Shown one piece after another: positions 41,525 through 52,109 of a stretch of DNA of 52,587 nt. Position numbers and translations under genes: made by a program. Origin of the DNA: Clostridiales bacterium (lineage in GTDB: Bacteria > Bacillota > Clostridia > Lachnospirales > JAISYE01); the NCBI GenBank assembly GCA_031297485.1, contig JAISYE010000187.1, positions 1 to 52,587 on the forward strand, given 5' to 3'. Every line of letters starts with the position of its first letter. Within the stretch, counting starts at the first letter, position 1. The notes below the pieces were generated by a model. It did not search any database, was not told where the DNA came from, and was given only the letters and a program-made list of their open reading frames with translations.

Positions 41525-42315
41525 ATGCCCACCCCGTCGAATCTTACTCTTAAACGGTTGTAGGTAAAACAGCAAATAACCGCCATTACCGCGGCCCAAC
41601 AACAGAGAGCCGAAAGGCCGAAAACCCCTTCCGACGCTTCCGCCTGGCCGGTTATAAGCATGGCGGGCATATATGTCACATAGGTAAACGGCAGAAAACG
41701 CAAAACAGCGCGCGCGTTTACCGGCAGAAGCGCCAGCGGCACAGCCGCGCCAGTCGCGAATTCAATAACCGAGCCTTGCAGATGCAGAAAAAATCCCACG
41801 TCCTGAAATTTAAACGCGAGTATGCCAATAAAAAAATGGTAGCTTACCATGAAGGTTGTTCCCGCGATAATCATTACGCCAGCCAAGGCGATTTGCGCGG
41901 GATTTTCCGAAAACATCATGTCAACGCGGAACAAAAGAGCGCAGGCAATGGCCGCTATTATCGAAAATATGGCGTAATAGCCTGCCGCGCCAAAGGTCTG
42001 CGCTAAAAAATGTTTCAGCGGATGGGTCGGAATTACCATGTACTTGGCAAAGGTTCCGCCGCGTATGCGCGCCGAAACCTCGCCGCTGACCCCGGCGGTG
42101 TCAATAGCCGCCAGAAACGAGCTTATGACGTAATAGCTTAACATGGCCTGAAACGTGAACCCGCCGACAGTTTCGCGCCCGTCAAATATCGCGCCCCACA
42201 TAATATAGGCGAACATGACGCGCCAAATTACCGAAAGCGCCGTCAGGGACACGTCGAAACGGTATACTATTTGCGTCTTGAAAAATATCTTGGCTACTTC
42301 CATATATTTTCTCAC
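41521..42315 (-). CDS. ABC-2 family transporter permease (second subunit)
   Basis: ORF track, 264 aa, polytopic. GTG start overlapping the ATPase stop (GTGA). Confidence 0.7.
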   Translation of the reverse strand: MRKYMEVAKIFFKTQIVYRFDVSLTALSVIWRVMFAYIMWGAIFDGRETVGGFTFQAMLSYYVISSFLAAIDTAGVSGEVSARIRGGTFAKYMVIPTHPLKHFLAQTFGAAGYYAIFSIIAAIACALLFRVDMMFSENPAQIALAGVMIIAGTTFMVSYHFFIGILAFKFQDVGFFLHLQGSVIEFATGAAVPLALLPVNARAVLRFLPFTYVTYMPAMLITGQAEASEGVFGLSALCCWAAVMAVICCFTYNRLRVRFDGVGI

Positions 42316-43313
42316 GCGCCAGCCTCCGTTTCATTATTAAGGCCCTTTGCCGCGTAGATCTTCTCGACGGTTTTTCCTATTTCTTCTTCCTCAATGGAGA
42401 TATCGGCGATGTCATAATCCCGCGTTATCTGGGCCGCAATTTTACCGGCTTGGTCCTTCGGCAAGATAAAGACCGCCCTGTACGGACTTCGCTCCAGCGT
42501 TTCCGCGCCTTCCGGAGGTATAAAATCAGTCTCGCGGCCGAAGGTAATTGTAATCTTTTTCCGCGACTGATACATGTCAAACAGGCTGTCTGTCCCGCCG
42601 TCATAGATTTTTTTGCCGCCGTTTATGACGACGCAGCGGGGGCAGAGCGTCCGCACATCTTCCATATAATGAGACGTAAGGATTATTGTCGTGGACTTCC
42701 GGCTGTTCACCTCGCGCAAAAAGCCGCGCATATTCCGCTGGGTCGCCGCGTCAAGGCCGATAGTGGGCTCGTCAAGGAACAACAAGCCCGGGTTGTGTAA
42801 AAGCGCCGCAATAAGCTCCAGTTTCATCCGTTCGCCTAAAGACAGCGTCCGTACCTGAACGTTCAGAAGTTCCGAAACGCCAAACAATTCCACAAAGTCG
42901 TCCACGTTGCGCTTGTAGGTTTTTTCCGGGATGCCGTAAAGCTCTTTGAACAACCGGAAGGTGTCCATGGGCGTTAATTCAAAAAAAAGCTGGCTCTTCT
43001 GACCCATGACAACAGCGTATTGCTTTTTAAACAAAGTCTCCAGTTTGTTCGGATAAAAGCCGAGCACGGAAATCTCGCCCGAGGAGGGCGCGATTATGCC
43101 GGTCAGCATCTTGACCAGCGTCGTCTTGCCCGAGCCGTTCGGCCCGATAAGCCCGATAAATTCCCCCTGCTCGACACAAAGGTCAAAATTCGCCACAGCG
43201 GTTTTGTCAATAAATTTGCGGTTAAACAGTGATTTGACGCTGCCGGTGAGGCCTGGCTCTTTCTCGAAGATTCGGAAAGTTTTGGTGAGGTCTTTTGTGT
43301 GGATTAAACTCAA
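42312..43313 (-). CDS. ABC transporter ATP-binding protein (ABC-2 type, with C-terminal accessory domain)
   Basis: ORF track, 333 aa. Walker A is GPNGSGKTT, the signature motif is LSLGERMK and Walker B is LLFLDEPT. TTG start with an AGGAGGA RBS. Confidence 0.85.
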   Translation of the reverse strand: MSLIHTKDLTKTFRIFEKEPGLTGSVKSLFNRKFIDKTAVANFDLCVEQGEFIGLIGPNGSGKTTLVKMLTGIIAPSSGEISVLGFYPNKLETLFKKQYAVVMGQKSQLFFELTPMDTFRLFKELYGIPEKTYKRNVDDFVELFGVSELLNVQVRTLSLGERMKLELIAALLHNPGLLFLDEPTIGLDAATQRNMRGFLREVNSRKSTTIILTSHYMEDVRTLCPRCVVINGGKKIYDGGTDSLFDMYQSRKKITITFGRETDFIPPEGAETLERSPYRAVFILPKDQAGKIAAQITRDYDIADISIEEEEIGKTVEKIYAAKGLNNETEAGA

Positions 43314-43956: not shown

Positions 43957-44404
43957 TTAAATAAATTTGATTTGTCTAAAAGCGATAAAAACACAAGCAA
44001 GTTGTAATAAATCCATATAAGTGAAAGCATATTTCTCATAACGCACAAGAATTTTGCGAAAGCGATTTAACCATGAGAAAACTCTTTCCATAACCCAACG
44101 ACATGCCTTAAATTCCGGATTGTTTTCAATATTTTGCTTTTCTTCACCACGAGATACTACATGTGGAATATAACCTCTAAGCACTATGGCTTCAAGCGCT
44201 GCTTCACCGTAGTAACCCTTCCGCGCACAGATTTTCCGTTGCTCCCTTCGAATAATCAATTTCAGGGCGCTCTACTTCTATATTATCCATGACTGTTTCT
44301 ATTTGCGTAACTTCATACCTGTTCGCTCCTGTCAATACTATGGACAATGGCACTCCGTTTCCATCAACTAGTATGTGCCTCTTGCTTCCATTCTTACCAC
44401 CCAT
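43957..44404 (-). pseudogene. IS5-family DDE transposase remnant (N-terminally truncated and frameshifted)
   Basis: Two track ORFs (44204..44404 and 43957..44259) together read GSKRHILVDGNGVPLSIVLTGANRYEVTQ ... NLCA/RKGYYGE ... GYIPHVVSRGEE ... CRWVMERVFSWLNRFRKILVRYEK. This is the conserved C-terminal two-thirds of IS5-group transposases. The frame changes near 44225-44240. Confidence 0.8.
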
Positions 44405-44606: not shown

Positions 44607-44759
44607 TCATTTATCGCCTTTTTGCATAATAAACTTTAATTGGGGATAAACTCTAAGCTTTTCGCGGTAGAAAAGGTTTTTTATCGAATTTTTAAACCCC
44701 AGCTCTTTTTTGTAGTATTCAAAAGTCTTTGACAAACCTCGTACGCTTATCATAGTCAT
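44607..44759 (-). pseudogene. 50-codon N-terminal stub of an ABC-2 type ATPase (paralog of 42312..43313)
   Basis: Reverse translation from the ATG at 44759 gives MTMISVRGLSKTFEYYKKELGFKNSIKNLFYREKLRVYPQLKFIMQKGDK then a stop. It aligns with MSLIHTKDLTKTFRIFEKEPGLTGSVKSLFNRKFIDKTAVANFDLCVEQGE and ends before the Walker A motif. Confidence 0.65.
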
Positions 44760-44798: not shown

Positions 44799-45800
44799 TT
44801 ATGGTACCTCTGATTCCACACCGTCCGCCCAATGTATACGTTCCTCAATCCAGCCGTCAAAATATTCGCTGATTTCCCTTTCAGGCTCCGTCTTTGTGAA
44901 TCCCTCAAGGAAAGCGGTGAGGTAGAAAAAGAACATATGATAGCAATAATAAGCCAAACGCTCAGGGCGAAGCGCGTATTCCACTCTGTGGCGCCTCAGC
45001 GCTTCATTGAAGGCAGTCCGCGCCCACGGACTGCAGCACATAACCCACGCGTCCCGCTCGGGCGGGGCGAGAAGCGCGTCGTCCCAGTCGATAATCCGAT
45101 AATCATCCCCGTTTACAAGCAGATTTCCTCCCGCGTCGCCATGTGTCAGATAGAAATGCGATGTGTCGTTTTTACATTCGCAAGCAAAGCGCCGCAATTT
45201 CCGCGCCCGTTGTTCCAACAATCCCCTGTGCCCCTCCAATACCTTATCGACCGCACCGCCCCTGTCACATGCTTCCCACAGTGTAAAAAAGCGTTCGGCA
45301 CTTTCGTCAGAAAATTTTGCGCGTGGAATATCAAGGTCATTTACAGGAACAGCGTAAACCCGCGCCAGCATATCATACTCAGGCGGCTTTGTCGCGTCTG
45401 TTTCAATACTCGTGCCATCGATCCAATCAAAGATTCCAAGTACCGCGCCCTCAAAATTTGTAAACAGCCGGCCGTCAACCGTTTTTACGATATGGCTGAT
45501 GAAATTAATACCATTCTGCCACAAATGGTCTATGATGAGAAAACTGCGGGCATAGACATCCTTATGTGTGGTGTAGTCCAACTTTAAAAAATAGCCGCGG
45601 TCTTCACATTCAAGCCTCCATGTTTCCCCGTAATAGCCGCGCGGAGCAGGCGCGATTCCAATGGGGTCCAAACGGTATTCCGCGCGGACAGACTCACATA
45701 GACGGCGCAAATATTCCCCGCCGCGTGATAAAATGTGCGAGGCGGAAACTTGAAGGCGGCTGTTATAAGAATTCATTTTTTCGCATCCTTTCGCGGACAT
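44799..45800 (-). CDS. Phosphotransferase enzyme family protein (APH/choline-kinase-like small-molecule kinase)
   Basis: ORF track, 333 aa. The catalytic loop is LTHGDAGGNLLV and the metal-binding motif is IIDWDD. The alternative ATG at 45776 (MNSYNSRL) has an AAAGGA RBS. Confidence 0.75.
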   Translation of the reverse strand: MSAKGCEKMNSYNSRLQVSASHILSRGGEYLRRLCESVRAEYRLDPIGIAPAPRGYYGETWRLECEDRGYFLKLDYTTHKDVYARSFLIIDHLWQNGINFISHIVKTVDGRLFTNFEGAVLGIFDWIDGTSIETDATKPPEYDMLARVYAVPVNDLDIPRAKFSDESAERFFTLWEACDRGGAVDKVLEGHRGLLEQRARKLRRFACECKNDTSHFYLTHGDAGGNLLVNGDDYRIIDWDDALLAPPERDAWVMCCSPWARTAFNEALRRHRVEYALRPERLAYYCYHMFFFYLTAFLEGFTKTEPEREISEYFDGWIEERIHWADGVESEVP

Positions 45801-45996
45801 ATCCTGCGAACAGTTAGATTCTTCACATCCGCAGTCCGCAAACGGGCGAACTGAAATTTGTGCCCGTCCGCCGTATACTAACCAGTATAGACCTTTTCTC
45901 TATAATAGGCAAGACGTGAGCGCGCAAAAAAATTATACTCTGGAACGCGCCCAAATTTTGAAAGGCCCAAAATTACAAACTAAACGAGGAGAGATT

Positions 45997-46605
45997 ATGT
46001 CAACTAAACCACCAGCAAAGCCAACTGAATTTGCATATGTCCGCGTGTCGAGCGCAGACCAGAACGAGGACAGGCAGCTCGACGCGATGACCGCCCTCGG
46101 CATACCGGCGGAGCGTATTTTCATTGACAAGCGCAGCGGCAAGGACACCAACCGCCCGCAGCTTCAGCGGCTTTTAATGACAGTCAAGAGCGGCGACACC
46201 ATAATTGTCGAATCGGTGAGCCGATTGGCCCGTAACACGCGTGATTTACTCGACCTCGTGGAACAGCTCGCCGCGACAGGGGTTGACTTCATAAGTCAAA
46301 AGGAAAACATAGACACGACCACGCCGACAGGCAAGTTTATGCTGACGGTGTTCGGCGCGGTTGCGGAACTGGAGCGCAGTTACATTAAGCAGCGCCAAGC
46401 CGAGGGGATTTCGTCGGCCAAACGACGGGGCGTTCATATGGGCAGGCCCGTTAAGCAAGCCCCTGACGGCTTTGGCGAACTCGTCAAACGATGGGAGCGC
46501 AAGGAAATCCCGCTTCACAAAGTCCTTTCCCACTGCGGCATAAGCGAGTCTACGTTCTACCGCCGGCTTGCCGAGCACCGCCGTCAACGCAAGGTCCGGC
46601 GGTAA
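45997..46605 (+). CDS. Small serine recombinase (resolvase/invertase family, Hin/Gin-like)
   Basis: The ORF track gives 45916..46605. I trimmed it to the ATG at 45997, which has a GAGGAGAG RBS. The catalytic N-terminus is FAYVRVSSADQNEDRQ. Motifs VESVSRLARN and ELERSYIKQRQ are present, with a C-terminal HTH (GISESTFYRRL). At 202 aa it is invertase-sized. Confidence 0.9.
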   Translation: MSTKPPAKPTEFAYVRVSSADQNEDRQLDAMTALGIPAERIFIDKRSGKDTNRPQLQRLLMTVKSGDTIIVESVSRLARNTRDLLDLVEQLAATGVDFISQKENIDTTTPTGKFMLTVFGAVAELERSYIKQRQAEGISSAKRRGVHMGRPVKQAPDGFGELVKRWERKEIPLHKVLSHCGISESTFYRRLAEHRRQRKVRR

Positions 46606-46610
46606 TCCGC

Positions 46611-46632
46611 TGTCAAAAGGTGTACCTTTTGA
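46611..46632. repeat. Left inverted repeat / crossover-site candidate (IRL)
   Basis: TGTCAAAAGGTGTACCTTTTGA. The internal 9+9 palindrome TCAAAAGGT / ACCTTTTGA flanks the central dinucleotide GT. Confidence 0.9.
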
Positions 46633-46683
46633 TTGTGATCTGTTTTGTACTTATATCACCCATAAGCACACACTTTTTAATAC

Positions 46684-46712
46684 TTTATACCACAAAAATC
46701 CTTCAAATGCAA
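46684..46712 (-). promoter_or_regulatory. Promoter inside the invertible segment, currently facing the recombinase gene
   Basis: Minus strand: TTGCAT (46712..46707), 17 nt spacer, TGgTATAAA extended -10 (TATAAA at 46689..46684). Confidence 0.6.
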
Positions 46713-46779
46713 GAAAATTTTTCACGTATAGAACATTTTTTGGAATTTTTTGCACGCGCAGAACGGCAGGCCGTCTTTC

Positions 46780-46801
46780 TCAAAAGGTACACCTTTTGAC
46801 A
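46780..46801. repeat. Right inverted repeat / crossover-site candidate (IRR)
   Basis: TCAAAAGGTACACCTTTTGACA is the exact reverse complement of 46611-46632. The central dinucleotide here reads AC. Confidence 0.9.
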
Positions 46802-46820
46802 AAAACATAGGAGGTTAAGT

Positions 46821-47513
46821 ATGAAAAAAACAGTTCCCGCGCTGGCGCTGGCTGTACTGCTGGCCTTTTTGGCAGGGTGCAAAGCGCAAGCCGCGGCAAC
46901 CGCGCCGAACTCAGAACCGCAAACGGCGGGCCAAGAGCCTGCGTCAAGCGCGCGGCCCGCAGCAGCCGCGCAAAGAGAAGCATTGCCGGAACCCGCGCCG
47001 CCGTCCGCGGAAGAACAGCCGGCAGAAGGCGGAGGCGGCAATTCCGCGCGGCCCGCGCATAAGGACTCATCAGACGGACCGCCGTCCGCGGAGTCGCAAT
47101 ACTGGCGCGTGACAGTCAATGACGTTCAGTCATCCGCGGGTTTAAGCGGCACAATTGATATGGTCCAGTACGACGGCTCGATAAGCCAGTCCGCCGTAAA
47201 CGCGGCGCCGAAAGACGGCTGCGCGTTCCTGCTGTTGTTTTTGACCATTGAAAAAACCCAAGGAGGTAAAGCGCTGTTCTCGTGGAAAGACACGTACATC
47301 CTCGACGAGAGCGGAGGCAAGTATCAACGGCACGAAAACGACACGTTTCTGGATAATGTCGGATACTCGCCGCGCTTAAAAGCTACCGACCAAGCGCTCG
47401 GCGCGGAAACGGGCTGGGCCTGCTATGAAGTATCCGCCGGCGCCGGAGCGCTGTACCTTGTTCACGACGGCGGGGACGGCGAGATAAGGATATCCATTGG
47501 GGAGGTACGCTGA
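46821..47513 (+). CDS. Lipoprotein with low-complexity linker and DUF4352-like C-terminal domain
   Basis: ORF track, 230 aa. Signal peptide plus lipobox (MKKTVPALALAVLLAFLAGCKAQ), an Ala/Pro/Glu-rich linker, and a C-terminal beta-rich domain (GCAFLLLFLTIEKTQGGKALFSWKDTYILDESGGKY). GGAGG RBS. Confidence 0.75.
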   Translation: MKKTVPALALAVLLAFLAGCKAQAAATAPNSEPQTAGQEPASSARPAAAAQREALPEPAPPSAEEQPAEGGGGNSARPAHKDSSDGPPSAESQYWRVTVNDVQSSAGLSGTIDMVQYDGSISQSAVNAAPKDGCAFLLLFLTIEKTQGGKALFSWKDTYILDESGGKYQRHENDTFLDNVGYSPRLKATDQALGAETGWACYEVSAGAGALYLVHDGGDGEIRISIGEVR

Positions 47514-47514
47514 C

Positions 47515-49473
47515 TTGGCATCTAAAACTAAACGTTTAGGACAGCTTTCGTTGATTGCGATAGCCTTGCTTATTGCCGGTACGGCGGCTTTTAGAGCGCT
47601 CACGCGCCGCGAAACTATCCCAGAGCCGTCCGCGCAAGGGCCGCCGCCGGTTGAGCAGCCGCAGGCGCCGGAACCAGCGCCGCCAGTTCAACCTGAAACA
47701 GTTCCGGAAGCCACAGCCGCGCCATTGGCGGAGCCAGAACCGGAGCAGACCGCAGACAGCGCCGCGTCACTGGACCCGATACTCGGCGAGATACTCTCGG
47801 CTGTGCGGGCGCTCGCGACCCCCACACCGGAACCCGAACCCACGCCCGACCCCAACGCTCCCATAGACGGTTTTCAGGAAATACTGCGGTATGTGTACGA
47901 ACAAATCGAAAAGCAAGCCTCTGTTGACGCGGATTTGCTTTCCGAACTGGACAGCGGCGCGTACACATTCAGCGGCCCGCTGATAGTTGTTGACCCTTAC
48001 GGATATGCTCCGTTAACAGCCGCAGCCGCGTTTGAAACCGCGGAACCTTCGAAAATATCCGTGCTTGTCCAGGGCAAAACGCCGGCGGCGGATATAGCGT
48101 TTGAGTTTGACGAATACCGCACAAAACATATTGTGCCAATATACGGCCTGTACGCCGACAAGCTCAACACTGTAACACTTACGGCGGTTGACAAAAGCGG
48201 ACGGATATCGGTCACCTCCGTTGAAATCCGCACGGACGCCCTGCCCGAACGTCTGGCGAAATTTGTTATTACAACCTACGCCGCGCAGCCTGATAAGTAC
48301 AGCTCTGGCCTGAATTTTTCCTCCGTTAACAAATACGCTTATGATATTAACGGCGATTACCGTTGGATAATAAACGACCGTGGAGCAGCTGTGACATATT
48401 GGAATTATTCGGAAGGCACATATATATGTCCTATGGAAAGCGCTAACCAGTCGCTGCTTGTAGAACGCAATACGCTCGGCAAATATTTGCGCTTGTGGTA
48501 CGCCCCCAGCGGCGGTGTAGGAATACATCACGATATCGAAGAAATGCCTGGCGGCAATTTGCTTCTGACCACAAGTTCGGCCGGCAGCGGCATAATAGTT
48601 GGCGATACCTGCGAAGACGTGGTTTTGGAATTAGACGCGCAGACCGGCGAGATTGTCAACTATCTGGATTTCATCAAAATTTTACAGCGTTTCCGGATGT
48701 CCCTGATGATAGCTAACGAAGCGGGTGTAAACTGGGACTGGCTCCATATGAATAAGGTCACTTACCATAACGGCAGCATAGTAATTTCAAGCCGGCACCA
48801 AAGCACAGTGGCAAAAGTTACTTGGCCGCAAGGCGATATCGAGTGGATTCTCGGCAGCCATTACGCCTGGTCGCCATACTGGCAGCAGTTTTTGCTGACT
48901 CCTACAGGCGATAATTTTGAATGGCAGCACGCGCAGCATTTTCCTATTGTGCTGCCTGACTTTGACGAAAACCCTGACACGGAAGATATTATGCTGTTTG
49001 ACAATGGCAACCAGCGGTTTGCGGAAGACTTTGAACTGCAGCGCCAGATTCAAGCAAACGAAGCTGCCGCGCCAGAAAATTACTCCCGCATTGTGCATTA
49101 CCGTATAGACGAGAAGGCAATGACTGTCGAACAAGTCTGGCAATACGGCAAGGAAAGAGGCGCCGAATGGTTTGCCAGCCGCTGCGGCAACGTGGCTCTG
49201 CTGGACAATGGCAGCCGTATAGGCAGCTGTATCATCGAAAGCGGCGCGCCGCCGCACTCAATTTTAAGCGAGGTGTCGGAAAGCGGCGAACTGGTGTGGG
49301 AAGCCTATACATCAACCAAGGACGCCAAGAGCACGCTGTACGAGTACAGGGCTTACCGGGAACCGCTGTATCGGAACTCGGACAACGACCTGCGCGTAGG
49401 CGAAAGCACGATTAACCTTGTTCCGCGGGACATTCTCATGAAATACGGATTTATAACCGAGGAGGGCGACTAA
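47515..49473 (+). CDS. Aryl-sulfate sulfotransferase (ASST family), N-terminal membrane anchor plus Pro-rich linker
   Basis: The ORF track gives 47497..49473. The in-frame TTG at 47515 follows a GGGGAGG RBS. It aligns with my recollection of E. coli AssT at LIVVDPYGYAPLTA, VPIYGLYADKLNTVTL, NWDWLHMN, IVISSRHQSTVAKV, IEWILG, IMLFDNGN and YSRIVHYRIDEKAMTVEQVWQYGKERG. Confidence 0.9.
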   Translation: MASKTKRLGQLSLIAIALLIAGTAAFRALTRRETIPEPSAQGPPPVEQPQAPEPAPPVQPETVPEATAAPLAEPEPEQTADSAASLDPILGEILSAVRALATPTPEPEPTPDPNAPIDGFQEILRYVYEQIEKQASVDADLLSELDSGAYTFSGPLIVVDPYGYAPLTAAAAFETAEPSKISVLVQGKTPAADIAFEFDEYRTKHIVPIYGLYADKLNTVTLTAVDKSGRISVTSVEIRTDALPERLAKFVITTYAAQPDKYSSGLNFSSVNKYAYDINGDYRWIINDRGAAVTYWNYSEGTYICPMESANQSLLVERNTLGKYLRLWYAPSGGVGIHHDIEEMPGGNLLLTTSSAGSGIIVGDTCEDVVLELDAQTGEIVNYLDFIKILQRFRMSLMIANEAGVNWDWLHMNKVTYHNGSIVISSRHQSTVAKVTWPQGDIEWILGSHYAWSPYWQQFLLTPTGDNFEWQHAQHFPIVLPDFDENPDTEDIMLFDNGNQRFAEDFELQRQIQANEAAAPENYSRIVHYRIDEKAMTVEQVWQYGKERGAEWFASRCGNVALLDNGSRIGSCIIESGAPPHSILSEVSESGELVWEAYTSTKDAKSTLYEYRAYREPLYRNSDNDLRVGESTINLVPRDILMKYGFITEEGD

Positions 49474-49474
49474 A

Positions 49475-50002
49475 ATGGCACATATACTTATTTTGCTGGT
49501 CATACTGGCGCCGGGATTTTTGGCGGGGCTGTACTATATGAATATTACGGACAGAAAAAAAATCCCGCCGCTTGAAGCAATCGGCCTGTTCGCAGCCTTC
49601 GCGTTTCTGTGTAATTTATTGCCAATGCTGATAACATGGCTGAAATGGAGCGGCGAACCCTTGAGCATACTCGGTTACGGCGGAGTATTTAACCAGTTGC
49701 AATTCTTGGTAAAATATATGCTGCTTCAGTGCGTATCCGCTGTGCTTCTTCCCTGGGCGGCGGCGTTCTTGTCGATGTTTTCGGCGGAGAGGGTCTTTGA
49801 CAAATTGATTGACCTTATGGCAGCCCAGTTTGCTGAAAAGTCGCGGGAGCGTAAAGCGCGTCGCGCGCTTGAAAAGGCGGAGCGGGAAGCCGCGGTTAAA
49901 GCGCTGGAAGAATCGGAAAAACAGGCGGAGGAAAAAGAAGCCCCAAGGGAAACTGAACCGTCTATGACAGAGGAGGAAACAGCCAATGAGAAAGCTGATT
50001 AA
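49475..50002 (+). CDS. Hypothetical membrane protein with a charged coiled-coil-like C-terminal tail
   Basis: ORF track, 175 aa, with about three or four hydrophobic helices followed by KSRERKARRALEKAEREAAVKALEESEKQAEEKEAPRETE. GAGGAGGG RBS. It overlaps the next gene by 17 nt. Confidence 0.65.
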   Translation: MAHILILLVILAPGFLAGLYYMNITDRKKIPPLEAIGLFAAFAFLCNLLPMLITWLKWSGEPLSILGYGGVFNQLQFLVKYMLLQCVSAVLLPWAAAFLSMFSAERVFDKLIDLMAAQFAEKSRERKARRALEKAEREAAVKALEESEKQAEEKEAPRETEPSMTEEETANEKAD

Positions 50003-52109
50003 AACGGCCTTAATCTGCCTTGCGGTAATTATCACACTCGCGGCAGCGGGATTCGCCGTGATACGCTCCGGCGTACTTGTGCGCCCGACGGAGAAATCCC
50101 TCGCGCGGCTGACCGAGGTGCCGGAATATGACATTCTGACCGCGCAATTTGAACGTGAGGCAGAGATACTCGCGGACTATAACGCCGCCGAATATTCCTT
50201 TGGAGACCCGTATGTGATACTGGACCCTTATGGCATGAACCCGCTTTCCGCGCTGGTAATGTTTGAGACGGACAAACCCGCGGACGTAAGCGTCATGGTA
50301 CAGGGCGACGACGAGTACAGCACCTTCGGCTACGAGGCAAAGCGGGTAAGCGGCCGCGCGGAAATCCCGGTAATCGGGCTGTACGCCGGGCGCGGCAACA
50401 TCGTTACGCTTGCGGCCGACTACGGCGGCGGTGATATAGAGACAAAGGAACTGACAATCACGACCGAACCGCTGCCGGCTGACTTCCAGTCATACAGCCT
50501 TGTGACGTCACAGCCCGCGGAAATGGAGCCTGGAATAACGCTGTTTATCCCGTGCTTTGAACATTCGTATACAGCGCTTGTGGACAGCAACGCCGAAGTC
50601 CGCGGTTATCTGACAAACACGCGGATGGCACACGGCACCGCTGTAATCCGGCTGGAAAACGGCAACTATCTCGCCACTGGCGACGAATACAGGCAATTGC
50701 CGTATAATATGAAGTCATTATTTGAATTTAACTGGCTTGGGAAAATATTCAAGGAATACGAAGTCCCGAACGGCGTACATCATAATATACGCGAACTGCC
50801 AAACGGTGATTTTCTGTGTGTGTCCAATAATGCCTATATGTTCCAGACGGGCACCCGTGAGGACGTTGTGATTATTGTTGACAGGGAGACAGGCGGCGTT
50901 AAAAAAGAGTATGATTTCCGCGGCATTATTGACGAAACCCGGGACCCGTACCACCACTTTCACCCGGATGTTAAAAATGTGCTGAACATTGACTGGATGC
51001 ATACCAACACCGCTATTTACGACGAAACTGGGAACGCGATTATCGTATCTTCACCTACACAGAGCCAGGTAATCTCCATAAACGCGGATACCTCGGAGAT
51101 TAACTGGATTCTAGGCCCGCGCGAAGGCTACGACAGCGAGGCCGCGCGGTTCCTGAAGCAGTACCTGCTTACGCCTGTGGGCGCCGGCTTTGAGTGGCAG
51201 TGGTGCCAGCACGAACCCGAAATTTTGCCGGATTTTGACAGCGACCCTGATACAATCGACTTGCTGCTGTTCGACAATGGACAGAGCAAAAGTTTTACCA
51301 AGGAGGGCGCGGTCTTGCCAGAAAACAACTATTCCCGCGGCGTACAGTTCCGTATAAACCAACGGGAAAAAACTGTTGAGCAAATTTGGGAATACGGTAA
51401 GGAACGCGGCTCAGATATGTATGCGACTTTCCTCGGCGACGCCGACTATTTGCCAATAACCGGGAATAGGCTCATCGACTGCGGAGGGCAGGTACGGCAA
51501 GGGGAAACGCCGACGGATGATATTCTCGGCGGCGTGTTTGGAACTACGGCCACCCGGTCCCGTATTGTCGAAGTTACGGAAAGCGGCGAAGCCGTCTTTG
51601 AAGTCGCTGTCCGCGAAATACCGCCGGACAATTCCGCTGAAACTTACCAGGCTGAACGTATGCCGCTGTACTCTGCCCCGAGTTTTGACTATAGACTGGG
51701 CGCGGCAAAAGGGGAACGGCTCGGAACGGACGAAGTTAACAGACGCCTTGTGGATGTTACGCCCCCTAATTTCTATATCGGTAAATTGTCCGCGGAGTTC
51801 CGCGATATACACCGTGAGGGCAGTCGCCTTATTATGGACGGCATGATTCTGCTCAATGGCGAGACTTACATGGTCGGCGGCGGTCAGGTCGTGCTGCGTG
51901 GCAAAAGCGGGAATGTGTACGTCTACGCGACAAATACCGCGATAAACGGCTTCTTCTTCGCCAGTATCGACCTTAATGAGATACAAGCGGACGAATACTC
52001 TATTGACATTATGGGCGCGGTCGTCGCGGACGGCAGTAATGATGCCTTATATGGCAAACGCACGCAGGGTTATTTCAGAACAGAGTACAAAATCACTAAG
52101 GCCAGTTAA
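49986..52109 (+). CDS. Aryl-sulfate sulfotransferase (ASST family) paralog, N-terminal membrane anchor
   Basis: ORF track, 707 aa. Supporting segments: VILDPYGMNPLSALVMFETDKPADVSVMVQG, IPVIGLYAGRGNIVTL, HHNIRELPNGDFL, NIDWMHTNT, IIVSSPTQSQVISI, INWILGP, LLLFDNGQ and YSRGVQFRINQREKTVEQIWEYGKERG. Confidence 0.9.
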   Translation: MRKLIKTALICLAVIITLAAAGFAVIRSGVLVRPTEKSLARLTEVPEYDILTAQFEREAEILADYNAAEYSFGDPYVILDPYGMNPLSALVMFETDKPADVSVMVQGDDEYSTFGYEAKRVSGRAEIPVIGLYAGRGNIVTLAADYGGGDIETKELTITTEPLPADFQSYSLVTSQPAEMEPGITLFIPCFEHSYTALVDSNAEVRGYLTNTRMAHGTAVIRLENGNYLATGDEYRQLPYNMKSLFEFNWLGKIFKEYEVPNGVHHNIRELPNGDFLCVSNNAYMFQTGTREDVVIIVDRETGGVKKEYDFRGIIDETRDPYHHFHPDVKNVLNIDWMHTNTAIYDETGNAIIVSSPTQSQVISINADTSEINWILGPREGYDSEAARFLKQYLLTPVGAGFEWQWCQHEPEILPDFDSDPDTIDLLLFDNGQSKSFTKEGAVLPENNYSRGVQFRINQREKTVEQIWEYGKERGSDMYATFLGDADYLPITGNRLIDCGGQVRQGETPTDDILGGVFGTTATRSRIVEVTESGEAVFEVAVREIPPDNSAETYQAERMPLYSAPSFDYRLGAAKGERLGTDEVNRRLVDVTPPNFYIGKLSAEFRDIHREGSRLIMDGMILLNGETYMVGGGQVVLRGKSGNVYVYATNTAINGFFFASIDLNEIQADEYSIDIMGAVVADGSNDALYGKRTQGYFRTEYKITKAS

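Follow-up and report, generated by a model that had tools for sequence, protein, structure and literature searches.

The locus described here raises the question of whether an operon for two arylsulfotransferases is switched by the inversion of a very short promoter segment. It lies on a 52,587-base-pair (bp) contig of a Clostridiales bacterium, referred to as the window, whose numbering is used throughout. The original prediction described a serine-invertase inverton assembled in its OFF state. As judged from the sequence and from comparison with related loci, the locus is very likely a promoter inverton, with inverted repeats (IRs) that bracket a promoter beside the 5' end of a gene, and the small serine recombinase encoded next to it would carry out the flip. 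The element is composed of the following parts.

45997-46605, plus strand: small serine recombinase, putative invertase, 202 amino acids (aa), PF00239 Resolvase
46611-46632, no strand assigned: left crossover site, a 22-bp IR arm with palindrome 46613-46632 and core GT 46622-46623
46633-46779, no strand assigned: predicted invertible spacer, 147 bp, AT-rich (GC 0.35), with A/T tracts every ~10.5 bp
46684-46712, minus strand: predicted invertible promoter TTGCAT-17-TGgTATAAA, facing the recombinase 3' end as assembled
46780-46801, no strand assigned: right crossover site, a 22-bp IR arm with palindrome 46780-46799 and core AC 46789-46790

The two IR arms are each 22 nucleotides (nt) long, 100% complementary and 147 nt apart, as established by a repeat finder and by reading of the sequence. 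Both arms hold the palindrome TCAAAAGGT-NN-ACCTTTTGA in a 9+2+9 layout, and the left core reads GT and the right core AC, as predicted. At up to three mismatches, the palindrome occurs only in these two places in the window, compared with 0.03 expected from shuffles. The left arm begins 6 nt past the recombinase stop codon, which ends at 46605, and 19 nt containing the Shine-Dalgarno sequence (SD) separate the right arm from the ATG of a lipoprotein-like gene. The centre-to-centre distance of the sites is 167 bp, or about 16 helical turns. As RNA, the site folds into a hairpin of -13.8 kcal/mol (z -3.4). A second, perfect inverted repeat of 15 nt (46350-46364 and 46896-46910, GTTCGGCGCGGTTGC and GCAACCGCGCCGAAC, 531 nt apart) joins the recombinase coding region and the lipoprotein gene; it is GC-rich, lies inside coding sequence and is probably due to chance.

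The recombinase sits outside the segment with its 3' end toward the left site. It matches the Pfam Resolvase family PF00239 with 148.1 bits (cut-off 23.3) and an E value of 2.5e-43, and over 7,800 homologues were found with E below 1e-20. Its top relative in the PDB is the Gin invertase (4m6f, E 1.5e-30, 39% identity); gamma-delta resolvase shares 36% identity (E 3.3e-28). The alignment with Gin covers residues 13-191 and runs through the C-terminal helix-turn-helix (HTH). YVRVSS of the recombinase aligns with YVRVST of Gin, the motif holding the nucleophile, and further pairings are SRLAR with DRLGR, GRPVK with GRPPK, and ESTFYRR with LSTLYKK. The recognition helices have the motif S-T-(L/F)-Y in common. 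With a nucleophile motif, an RxxR motif, a GR(P) minor-groove arm, a C-terminal HTH and a length of 202 aa, the enzyme is by sequence a bona fide small serine recombinase, in agreement with the original assignment. P0001, 'recombinase family protein [Clostridiales bacterium]', has the same sequence, and the window protein scores 58.5 bits against the Mpi family model NF009949, far below the cut-off of 272.

The same arrangement recurs in a family of loci. One genome per species was searched for the 20-bp palindrome, which gave at least 120 loci, labelled with L numbers; the family counts given here cover the matches listed plus the window (121 loci). Almost all loci belong to Clostridia, including Oscillospiraceae, Lachnospiraceae, Acutalibacteraceae and Peptococcaceae among others, and come from animal, human and termite guts. 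A second copy of the palindrome lies 94-383 bp away in 83 of the 121 loci. Among 94 neighbouring pairs of sites, 79 have complementary asymmetric cores (GT/AC, CT/AG or TT/AA), 13 have AT/AT cores and none is direct; the remaining two are mismatched and represent junctions between tandem invertons with different cores (L121 and L122). Thus, all 79 asymmetric core pairs are reverse complements. In the 92 pairs with a spacing of 94-383 bp, the cores are complementary or palindromic throughout, never direct, and allow inversion only, which bears out the expectation that such sites lead to inversion rather than excision.

The half-site is conserved over more positions than the search pattern contained, out to position -13 (ACTRTCAAAAGGT), and T stands at position -11 in 88-90% of both inner and outer halves. 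The site is therefore about 24-26 bp long, like hix, and the left site of the window fits the consensus ACTRTCAAAAGGT|NN. Roughly half of the pairs (about 45) abut a homologous recombinase, 35-75% identical to that of the window and ending 15-60 bp from one site. In these pairs the recombinase is always outside the segment, with its 3' end toward it. The remaining pairs are orphans that have no adjacent recombinase, often several per genome. The interiors are not conserved between copies: only 15 homologous pairs were found among about 90, and a search of the family interiors for a conserved element found none besides the promoter and phased A-tracts.

Inversion is directly visible in one orthologous pair of family members, L089 from a Lacrimispora isolate and L112 from a metagenome-assembled genome (MAG) labelled Blautia. 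Their flanks are collinear (78% and 95% identity), whereas the whole interior of one, from site to site, matches the reverse complement of the other. This is the one pair of relatives in the family that shows both orientations. In addition, contig ends fall within 200 bp of a site 16 times, compared with 3.5 expected (P about 1e-6), an excess that is a signature of assemblies breaking at heterogeneous invertons. A search of other genomes for the opposite orientation, which the original prediction had proposed, thus yielded an inverted pair in the family and no second copy of the window locus. The window is the only contig on record with this recombinase protein, and the closest relatives are at most 81% identical. 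As the window contig is the only copy on record, flipping at this locus is unobserved, and the inversion of the window segment is predicted from the family.

The predicted promoter of the window lies on the minus strand. Its -35 element TTGCAT is the complement of 46707-46712 and is separated by a 17-nt spacer that ends in TGg from the -10 element TATAAA, the complement of 46684-46689. In our scoring, this promoter reaches 15 versus 13.5 for the best site on the plus strand, a slight margin. The closest relative, L192, whose recombinase is 81% identical, carries TTGATT-17-TGcTATAAT, which aligns with the window promoter column for column on the same strand and in the same layout. Therefore, the assembled state points away from the operon, and the predicted OFF state is supported; the assembled orientation is likely OFF for the operon. 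After a flip, the -10 element would stand about 92 nt upstream of the ATG, close to the 90 nt originally estimated. Among 37 family invertons with a clear promoter and a single regulatable gene, 27 are assembled as OFF and 10 as ON. The ratio is alike in recombinase-adjacent and orphan elements, and is 14:5 in the orphans.

The family promoter is usually TTGnnn-17-TGnTAnAAT and ends 19-21 nt from one site. The -10 hexamer is found at this distance from the palindrome that it faces in, for example, L019, L021, L031, L049 and L065, and at about 51 nt in the window and L192. From promoters 19-21 nt away, transcripts would start about 12 nt ahead of the site and carry it as a 5'-proximal hairpin that could increase mRNA stability or permit occlusion by the recombinase. 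The window has a second -10 candidate on the minus strand, TGaTATAAG (complement of 46650-46658), which stands 17 nt from the left site in the family-typical place. It was rejected as less likely because it has no -35 element and ends in G, whereas TTGCAT-17-TGgTATAAA is conserved in L192. Both candidate -10 elements of the window are thus on the minus strand.

Several observations weigh against a working switch at this locus. Exact-protein look-ups of the 202-aa and 229-aa forms of the recombinase and of the lipoprotein yielded no other copy, and the exact junction of recombinase end and left site was not found in metagenome contigs. Independent assemblies of three relatives showed a single orientation; the assemblies compared (L194 and L195; L196, L197 and L198) all agree and are thus uninformative. 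The recombinase has S in place of the D of DRLGR, which is present in both Gin and gamma-delta resolvase. The minus-strand promoter was called strong in the original prediction; its presence, sequence and direction hold, and its strength does not, since it is sub-consensus. The -35 element matches TTGACA at only 3/6 positions and the -10 element lacks the final T, which is why a consensus scanner did not list the promoter. It also ends 51 nt from the left site instead of the family-typical 19-21 nt. Moreover, the operon is transcribed in the same direction as the recombinase gene, and no convincing terminator separates the two. The GAACGGCAGGCCGTC hairpin inside the window segment folds no better than shuffles, although several relatives carry clear terminators inside the segment, and an Rfam scan of 45500-47200 gave no match. 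With a co-directional recombinase gene and weak hairpins only, the OFF state may be leaky, and read-through from the recombinase gene may give some expression of the operon. Finally, the curvature and the enhancer-free mechanism proposed below are drawn from sequence statistics only.

The spacing of the sites follows a helical rule. After removal of homologous interiors (n=74 site pairs), the spacing is quantised with a best period of 10.6 bp (R=0.725), a value not attained by any of 20,000 random sets. The classes are 94, 105, 115, 126, 136, 147, 158, 167, 179 and 187 bp, and the 167 bp of the window correspond to 16 turns. The DNA between the sites is also periodic. AA/TT dinucleotides recur at 10.5 bp with z=33 versus shuffles, and the mean power at this period is 0.88; AT-rich control windows taken from the same loci reach 0.26. 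Relative to the site centres the phase is fixed (R 0.78-0.83), with AA/TT maxima at 21, 31.5, 42, 52.5, 63 and 73.5 bp inside the segment, whereas the outward flanks are flat. The window follows both the spacing and the phasing rule. Its spacer has an AA/TT power of 1.60, above the 99th percentile of the controls (1.18), and a phase 0.19 bp from the family mean of 0.

These regularities suggest an intrinsically curved mini-loop that would need no Fis or enhancer; the curvature mechanism is close to an even call, or slightly below it. Judging from solved resolvase-DNA complexes and the known direction of A-tract bending, the A-tract minor grooves would lie on the side occupied by the catalytic domains, which is also that of the minor groove at the crossover centre. 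In this arrangement the spacer would bend around the recombinase core and bring both sites, on one face, into a U-shaped loop. Such a loop would align the inverted sites in parallel; this alone would favour inversion and explain the persistence of sites with AT cores. Thirteen family invertons (for example L002, L062, L085 and L111) combine an AT core with symmetric half-sites and have no intrinsic polarity. Their persistence suggests that geometry, not core asymmetry, dictates inversion.

The reaction at the window locus could then proceed as follows. Recombinase dimers would bind the two palindromic sites of about 24-26 bp with the consensus ACTRTCAAAAGGT-NN-ACCTTTTGAYAGT. A/T tracts placed whole helical turns away from both centres, together with a distance of 16 turns between the sites, would curve the spacer and put the two sites on one face. 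The U-shaped mini-loop would unite the sites in one synaptic tetramer in which no Fis-type enhancer takes part. All four strands would be cleaved at the central GT/AC, with the cuts staggered by 2 nt, half of the tetramer would rotate by 180 degrees, and the ends would religate, with complementary overhangs arising from the inverted alignment only. The flip would turn TTGCAT-17-TGgTATAAA from the recombinase gene (OFF) to the operon of the lipoprotein and two arylsulfotransferases (ON).

The closest known system is the Salmonella flagellar switch Hin/hix, of the Din family (Hin, Gin, Cin and Pin). It likewise consists of a small serine recombinase with a C-terminal HTH, encoded by an adjacent gene, and of sites with two inverted half-sites around a 2-bp core that is cut with a stagger, and its inversion changes the direction of a promoter that serves a surface or exported product. 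The inverted sites of the window family share the 12-2-12 layout of the Din sites, and the half-site TRTCAAAA stands in the same register as hix TATCAAAA, in line with the predicted Hin/Gin-type architecture. The hix half-site quoted in the original prediction is correct, as hixL is printed as TTCTTGAAAACC AA GGTTTTTGATAA (PMC3241671, Table 3). The element would, by analogy, work like Hin/hix at the chemical level. There are also clear differences. The window enzyme is about as close to gamma-delta resolvase as to Gin, and the core is GT/AC here and AA or GA in Din sites. The Hin segment spans ~1,000 bp, with a Fis-bound enhancer ~100 bp from hix, and Hin needs both this enhancer and HU (PMC3798978). 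In contrast, the 147-bp segment of the window has no room for a gene, the recombinase lies outside with its 3' end toward the segment, and the family has integer-turn spacing and phase-locked A-tracts.

Other switches resemble the element in part. Mpi of Bacteroides fragilis, the master invertase of polysaccharide promoter invertons, is likewise a serine recombinase that flips short promoter segments upstream of surface-structure loci. In both systems a genome may hold many orphan invertons, on which a single enzyme presumably acts in trans. The window family differs in its site sequences, its Clostridia hosts and the presence of an adjacent recombinase in about half of the elements. The fimS element of E. 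coli, switched by FimB and FimE, is also a promoter-only element that turns an adjacent surface operon ON or OFF, and its synapsis requires a short segment to be bent. Its recombinases are of the tyrosine type, its IRs are 9 bp long and its segment of 314 bp is bent by IHF and Lrp, whereas bending here would come from intrinsic A-tract curvature. The RecV switches of Clostridioides difficile (cwpV and the flagellar switch) are short invertible segments upstream of surface or exported functions as well, and RecV is a tyrosine recombinase. The same holds for the Clostridia inverton groups linked to tyrosine recombinases, including group 139 (PMC11892184), while the window family combines a serine recombinase with 2-bp-core sites. 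The papers found on Clostridia invertons deal with such tyrosine-recombinase groups and not with the window family. A literature search for the site sequence matched 9-mers in primers only and gave no relevant paper for 14-mers; among the papers searched, none was found on helically phased invertons or phased A-tracts in invertons.

Alternative explanations differ in how much of this evidence they can accommodate. The switch could be two-way or autoregulatory: the promoter as assembled would be functional, and antisense transcription through the recombinase gene would damp its expression and stabilise the state. Antisense transcripts might also read into the gene of an APH-family phosphotransferase (44799-45800, minus strand), the next minus-strand gene beyond the recombinase. 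This possibility is compatible with inversion and alters only the meaning of 'OFF'. In recombinase-adjacent members, the promoter faces the recombinase 3' end about four times more often than away, and nothing resembling a terminator separates the promoter from the recombinase gene. However, the orphan invertons share the OFF bias, so antisense control is not needed to account for it. The APH gene is also ~880 nt away, has its own promoter-like site (45912-45884) and shows no conserved linkage in the relatives examined. Both the autoregulation and its extension to the APH gene are unlikely.

The copy in the window could alternatively be a fossil or locked inverton that flips no more, owing to an inactive recombinase or a decayed promoter, in which case the operon would be expressed by read-through if at all. 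The sub-consensus, displaced promoter, the SRLAR motif, the assembly of the contig straight through the element and the lack of an alternative orientation on record would agree with this. Yet the arms are identical at 22/22 positions, and the recombinase reading frame is intact with its nucleophile motif, both RxxR arginines and the GRP arm. The spacing and A-tract phase are kept, with a power above that of nearly all controls, and the promoter layout recurs in L192. A dead element is therefore quite improbable.

A third explanation holds that the palindromes are static, serving as operators for a dimeric HTH protein, with the resolvase-like protein as repressor, or as terminator hairpins around a fixed promoter that never rearranges. 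Each site palindrome can fold as an RNA hairpin, and autoregulation through binding to res is known for resolvases. However, neither operators nor terminators would call for reverse-complement cores in every asymmetric pair, and they do not account for the exact site-to-site inversion between L089 and L112. Terminators, moreover, keep structure rather than a 13-nt half-site sequence across families, and the helical quantisation and inside-only phasing argue for synapsis between sites. The explanation was rejected as very improbable. Least credible of all is that the 191-bp IR-bounded unit is a miniature inverted-repeat transposable element with the repeats as its termini: although there are several copies per genome, many have no adjacent recombinase and some cassettes adjoin relaxase genes, the idea was rejected because the interiors are unconserved while the 'termini' are conserved across families and because no target-site duplication flanks the window copy (ccgc vs aaaa), and the copies stand 20-150 nt upstream of exported-protein genes with a promoter.

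The reading of the locus as a promoter inverton served by its own recombinase leads to the operon that would be switched. The regulated genes and a candidate promoter of the recombinase gene are as follows.

45851-45879, plus strand: candidate sigma-70-type promoter of the recombinase gene, CTGAAA-17-TATACT, a consensus match only (9/12 positions)
46810-47513, plus strand: SD GGAGG (46810-46814) and lipoprotein-like protein of 230 aa (MKKTVPALALAVLLAFLAGC...), ATG at 46821, first regulated gene
47497-49473, plus strand: arylsulfotransferase (ASST) paralogue 1 with N-terminal membrane anchor, PF05935 E 5.6e-72, PF17425 E 1.8e-18
49475-50002, plus strand: small membrane protein with hydrophobic N-terminal half, no family above cut-off
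49986-52109, plus strand: ASST paralogue 2 with N-terminal membrane anchor, PF05935 E 1.2e-75, PF17425 E 3.2e-15

The four open reading frames (ORFs) downstream of the segment are tightly packed or overlapping on the plus strand. The lipoprotein-like ORF (46821-47513) has a lipobox LAGC, is scored as signal-peptide-like and matches no Pfam family. Both ASST paralogues contain the Arylsulfotrans (PF05935) and Arylsulfotran_N domains. Across the family, 30 of 59 genes with their 5' end adjacent to an inverton are signal-peptide-like, compared with 19% of background ORFs. Invertons stand 20-150 nt upstream of exported-protein genes, with the promoter facing outward or inward. The regulated genes include those for BspA-type leucine-rich repeat (LRR), SLH, Big_2, Listeria-Bacteroides repeat and dockerin proteins, a teichoic-acid glycerophosphotransferase, and SPFH plus zinc-ribbon proteins. 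The ASST cargo of the window fits this exported theme and is an unusual enzymatic target. If the switch operates as proposed, a membrane-anchored or secreted pair of arylsulfotransferases, which sulfate phenolic compounds, would be expressed in a subpopulation only. Such phase-variable small-molecule chemistry is unlike the usual adhesin or capsule targets.

The window locus is very likely a new member of the serine-invertase promoter invertons, and the elements of its family are very short and helically quantised; the sequence statistics suggest that they are intrinsically curved, and they are probably enhancer-independent. The family of gut-Clostridia switches is apparently large and undescribed. 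It is tentatively possible, at somewhat less than even chance, that these loci form a very large undescribed class of enhancer-independent 'mini-invertons' in gut Clostridia. In such elements the sites would be integer turns apart (94-190 bp), a planar A/T-tract curve would do the work of Fis, the enhancer and HU, and the geometry of the loop would impose inversion over deletion even at AT cores. The switch of the window would then make extracellular arylsulfotransferase activity phase-variable. Pairs of TCAAAAGGT-NN-ACCTTTTGA at multiples of 10.5 bp provide a searchable signature that finds invertons in hundreds of uncultured Clostridia without the need for reads; most of them precede genes for BspA-LRR, SLH, Big_2 and dockerin surface proteins. 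The quantised spacing and inside-only phasing also constitute a testable model of how a serine recombinase would synapse sites ~150 bp apart and choose inversion without an enhancer. Compact, self-contained switches of this kind would suit synthetic biology in Gram-positive anaerobes.

Some family members display further variation. Two loci carry tandem invertons directly after a recombinase 73% identical to that of the window (L121:1313-1711 and L122:2531-2965). The first inverton has TT/AA cores and the second AC/GT, a difference that would keep the four sites from cross-recombining. A variant palindrome, TCCAAAGAAGT-NN-ACTTCTTTGGA, with complementary cores AC/GT and AG/CT ~180 bp apart, occurs at L124:2882-3086 and L128:2276-2478. 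The site in L124 reads TCCAAAGAAGT-AC-ACTTCTTTGGA, and the recombinases are 69% (L124) and 49% (L128) identical to that of the window, which suggests from the sequences that site and HTH co-vary across the superfamily. At L193:5588-5836, the contig ends 248 bp past a recombinase of 75% identity; this stretch has no canonical palindrome and contains a promoter-like sequence, TTGAATCATGCTATACTGATAAT.

The genomic context of the family is also varied. In L199:1-2103, L200:1-2103 and L201:22-2088, a relaxase gene (MobA_MobL or Mob_Pre) immediately precedes the cassette of recombinase and inverton, and at least some such cassettes ride on mobilisable elements. Clostridia-type invertons are also found on contigs binned elsewhere ('cleanbin' MAGs), namely as Escherichia coli (L033 and L057), as Prevotella, Alloprevotella and Muribaculaceae (L058, L049 and L075) and as Phascolarctobacterium (L048 and L113). 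Their presence in MAGs of unrelated taxa reflects either mis-binning or horizontal spread.

Upstream of the recombinase in the window, ABC-transporter genes and the APH-like gene flank a patch of low GC content (0.31-0.47). Two overlapping ORF fragments in this patch (43957-44404, minus strand) match the transposase domains DDE_Tnp_1 and DDE_Tnp_1_2, and from their sequence look like a frameshifted insertion sequence (IS) remnant. A 50-aa ORF (44607-44759, minus strand, MTMISVRGLSKTFEYYKKELGFKNSIKNLF...) has no Pfam hit and by eye resembles the N terminus of the ABC ATPase encoded at 42312-43313 (MSLIHTKDLTKTFRIFEKEPGLTGSVKSLF...). This short ORF could represent a truncated duplicate that the IS insertion left behind.

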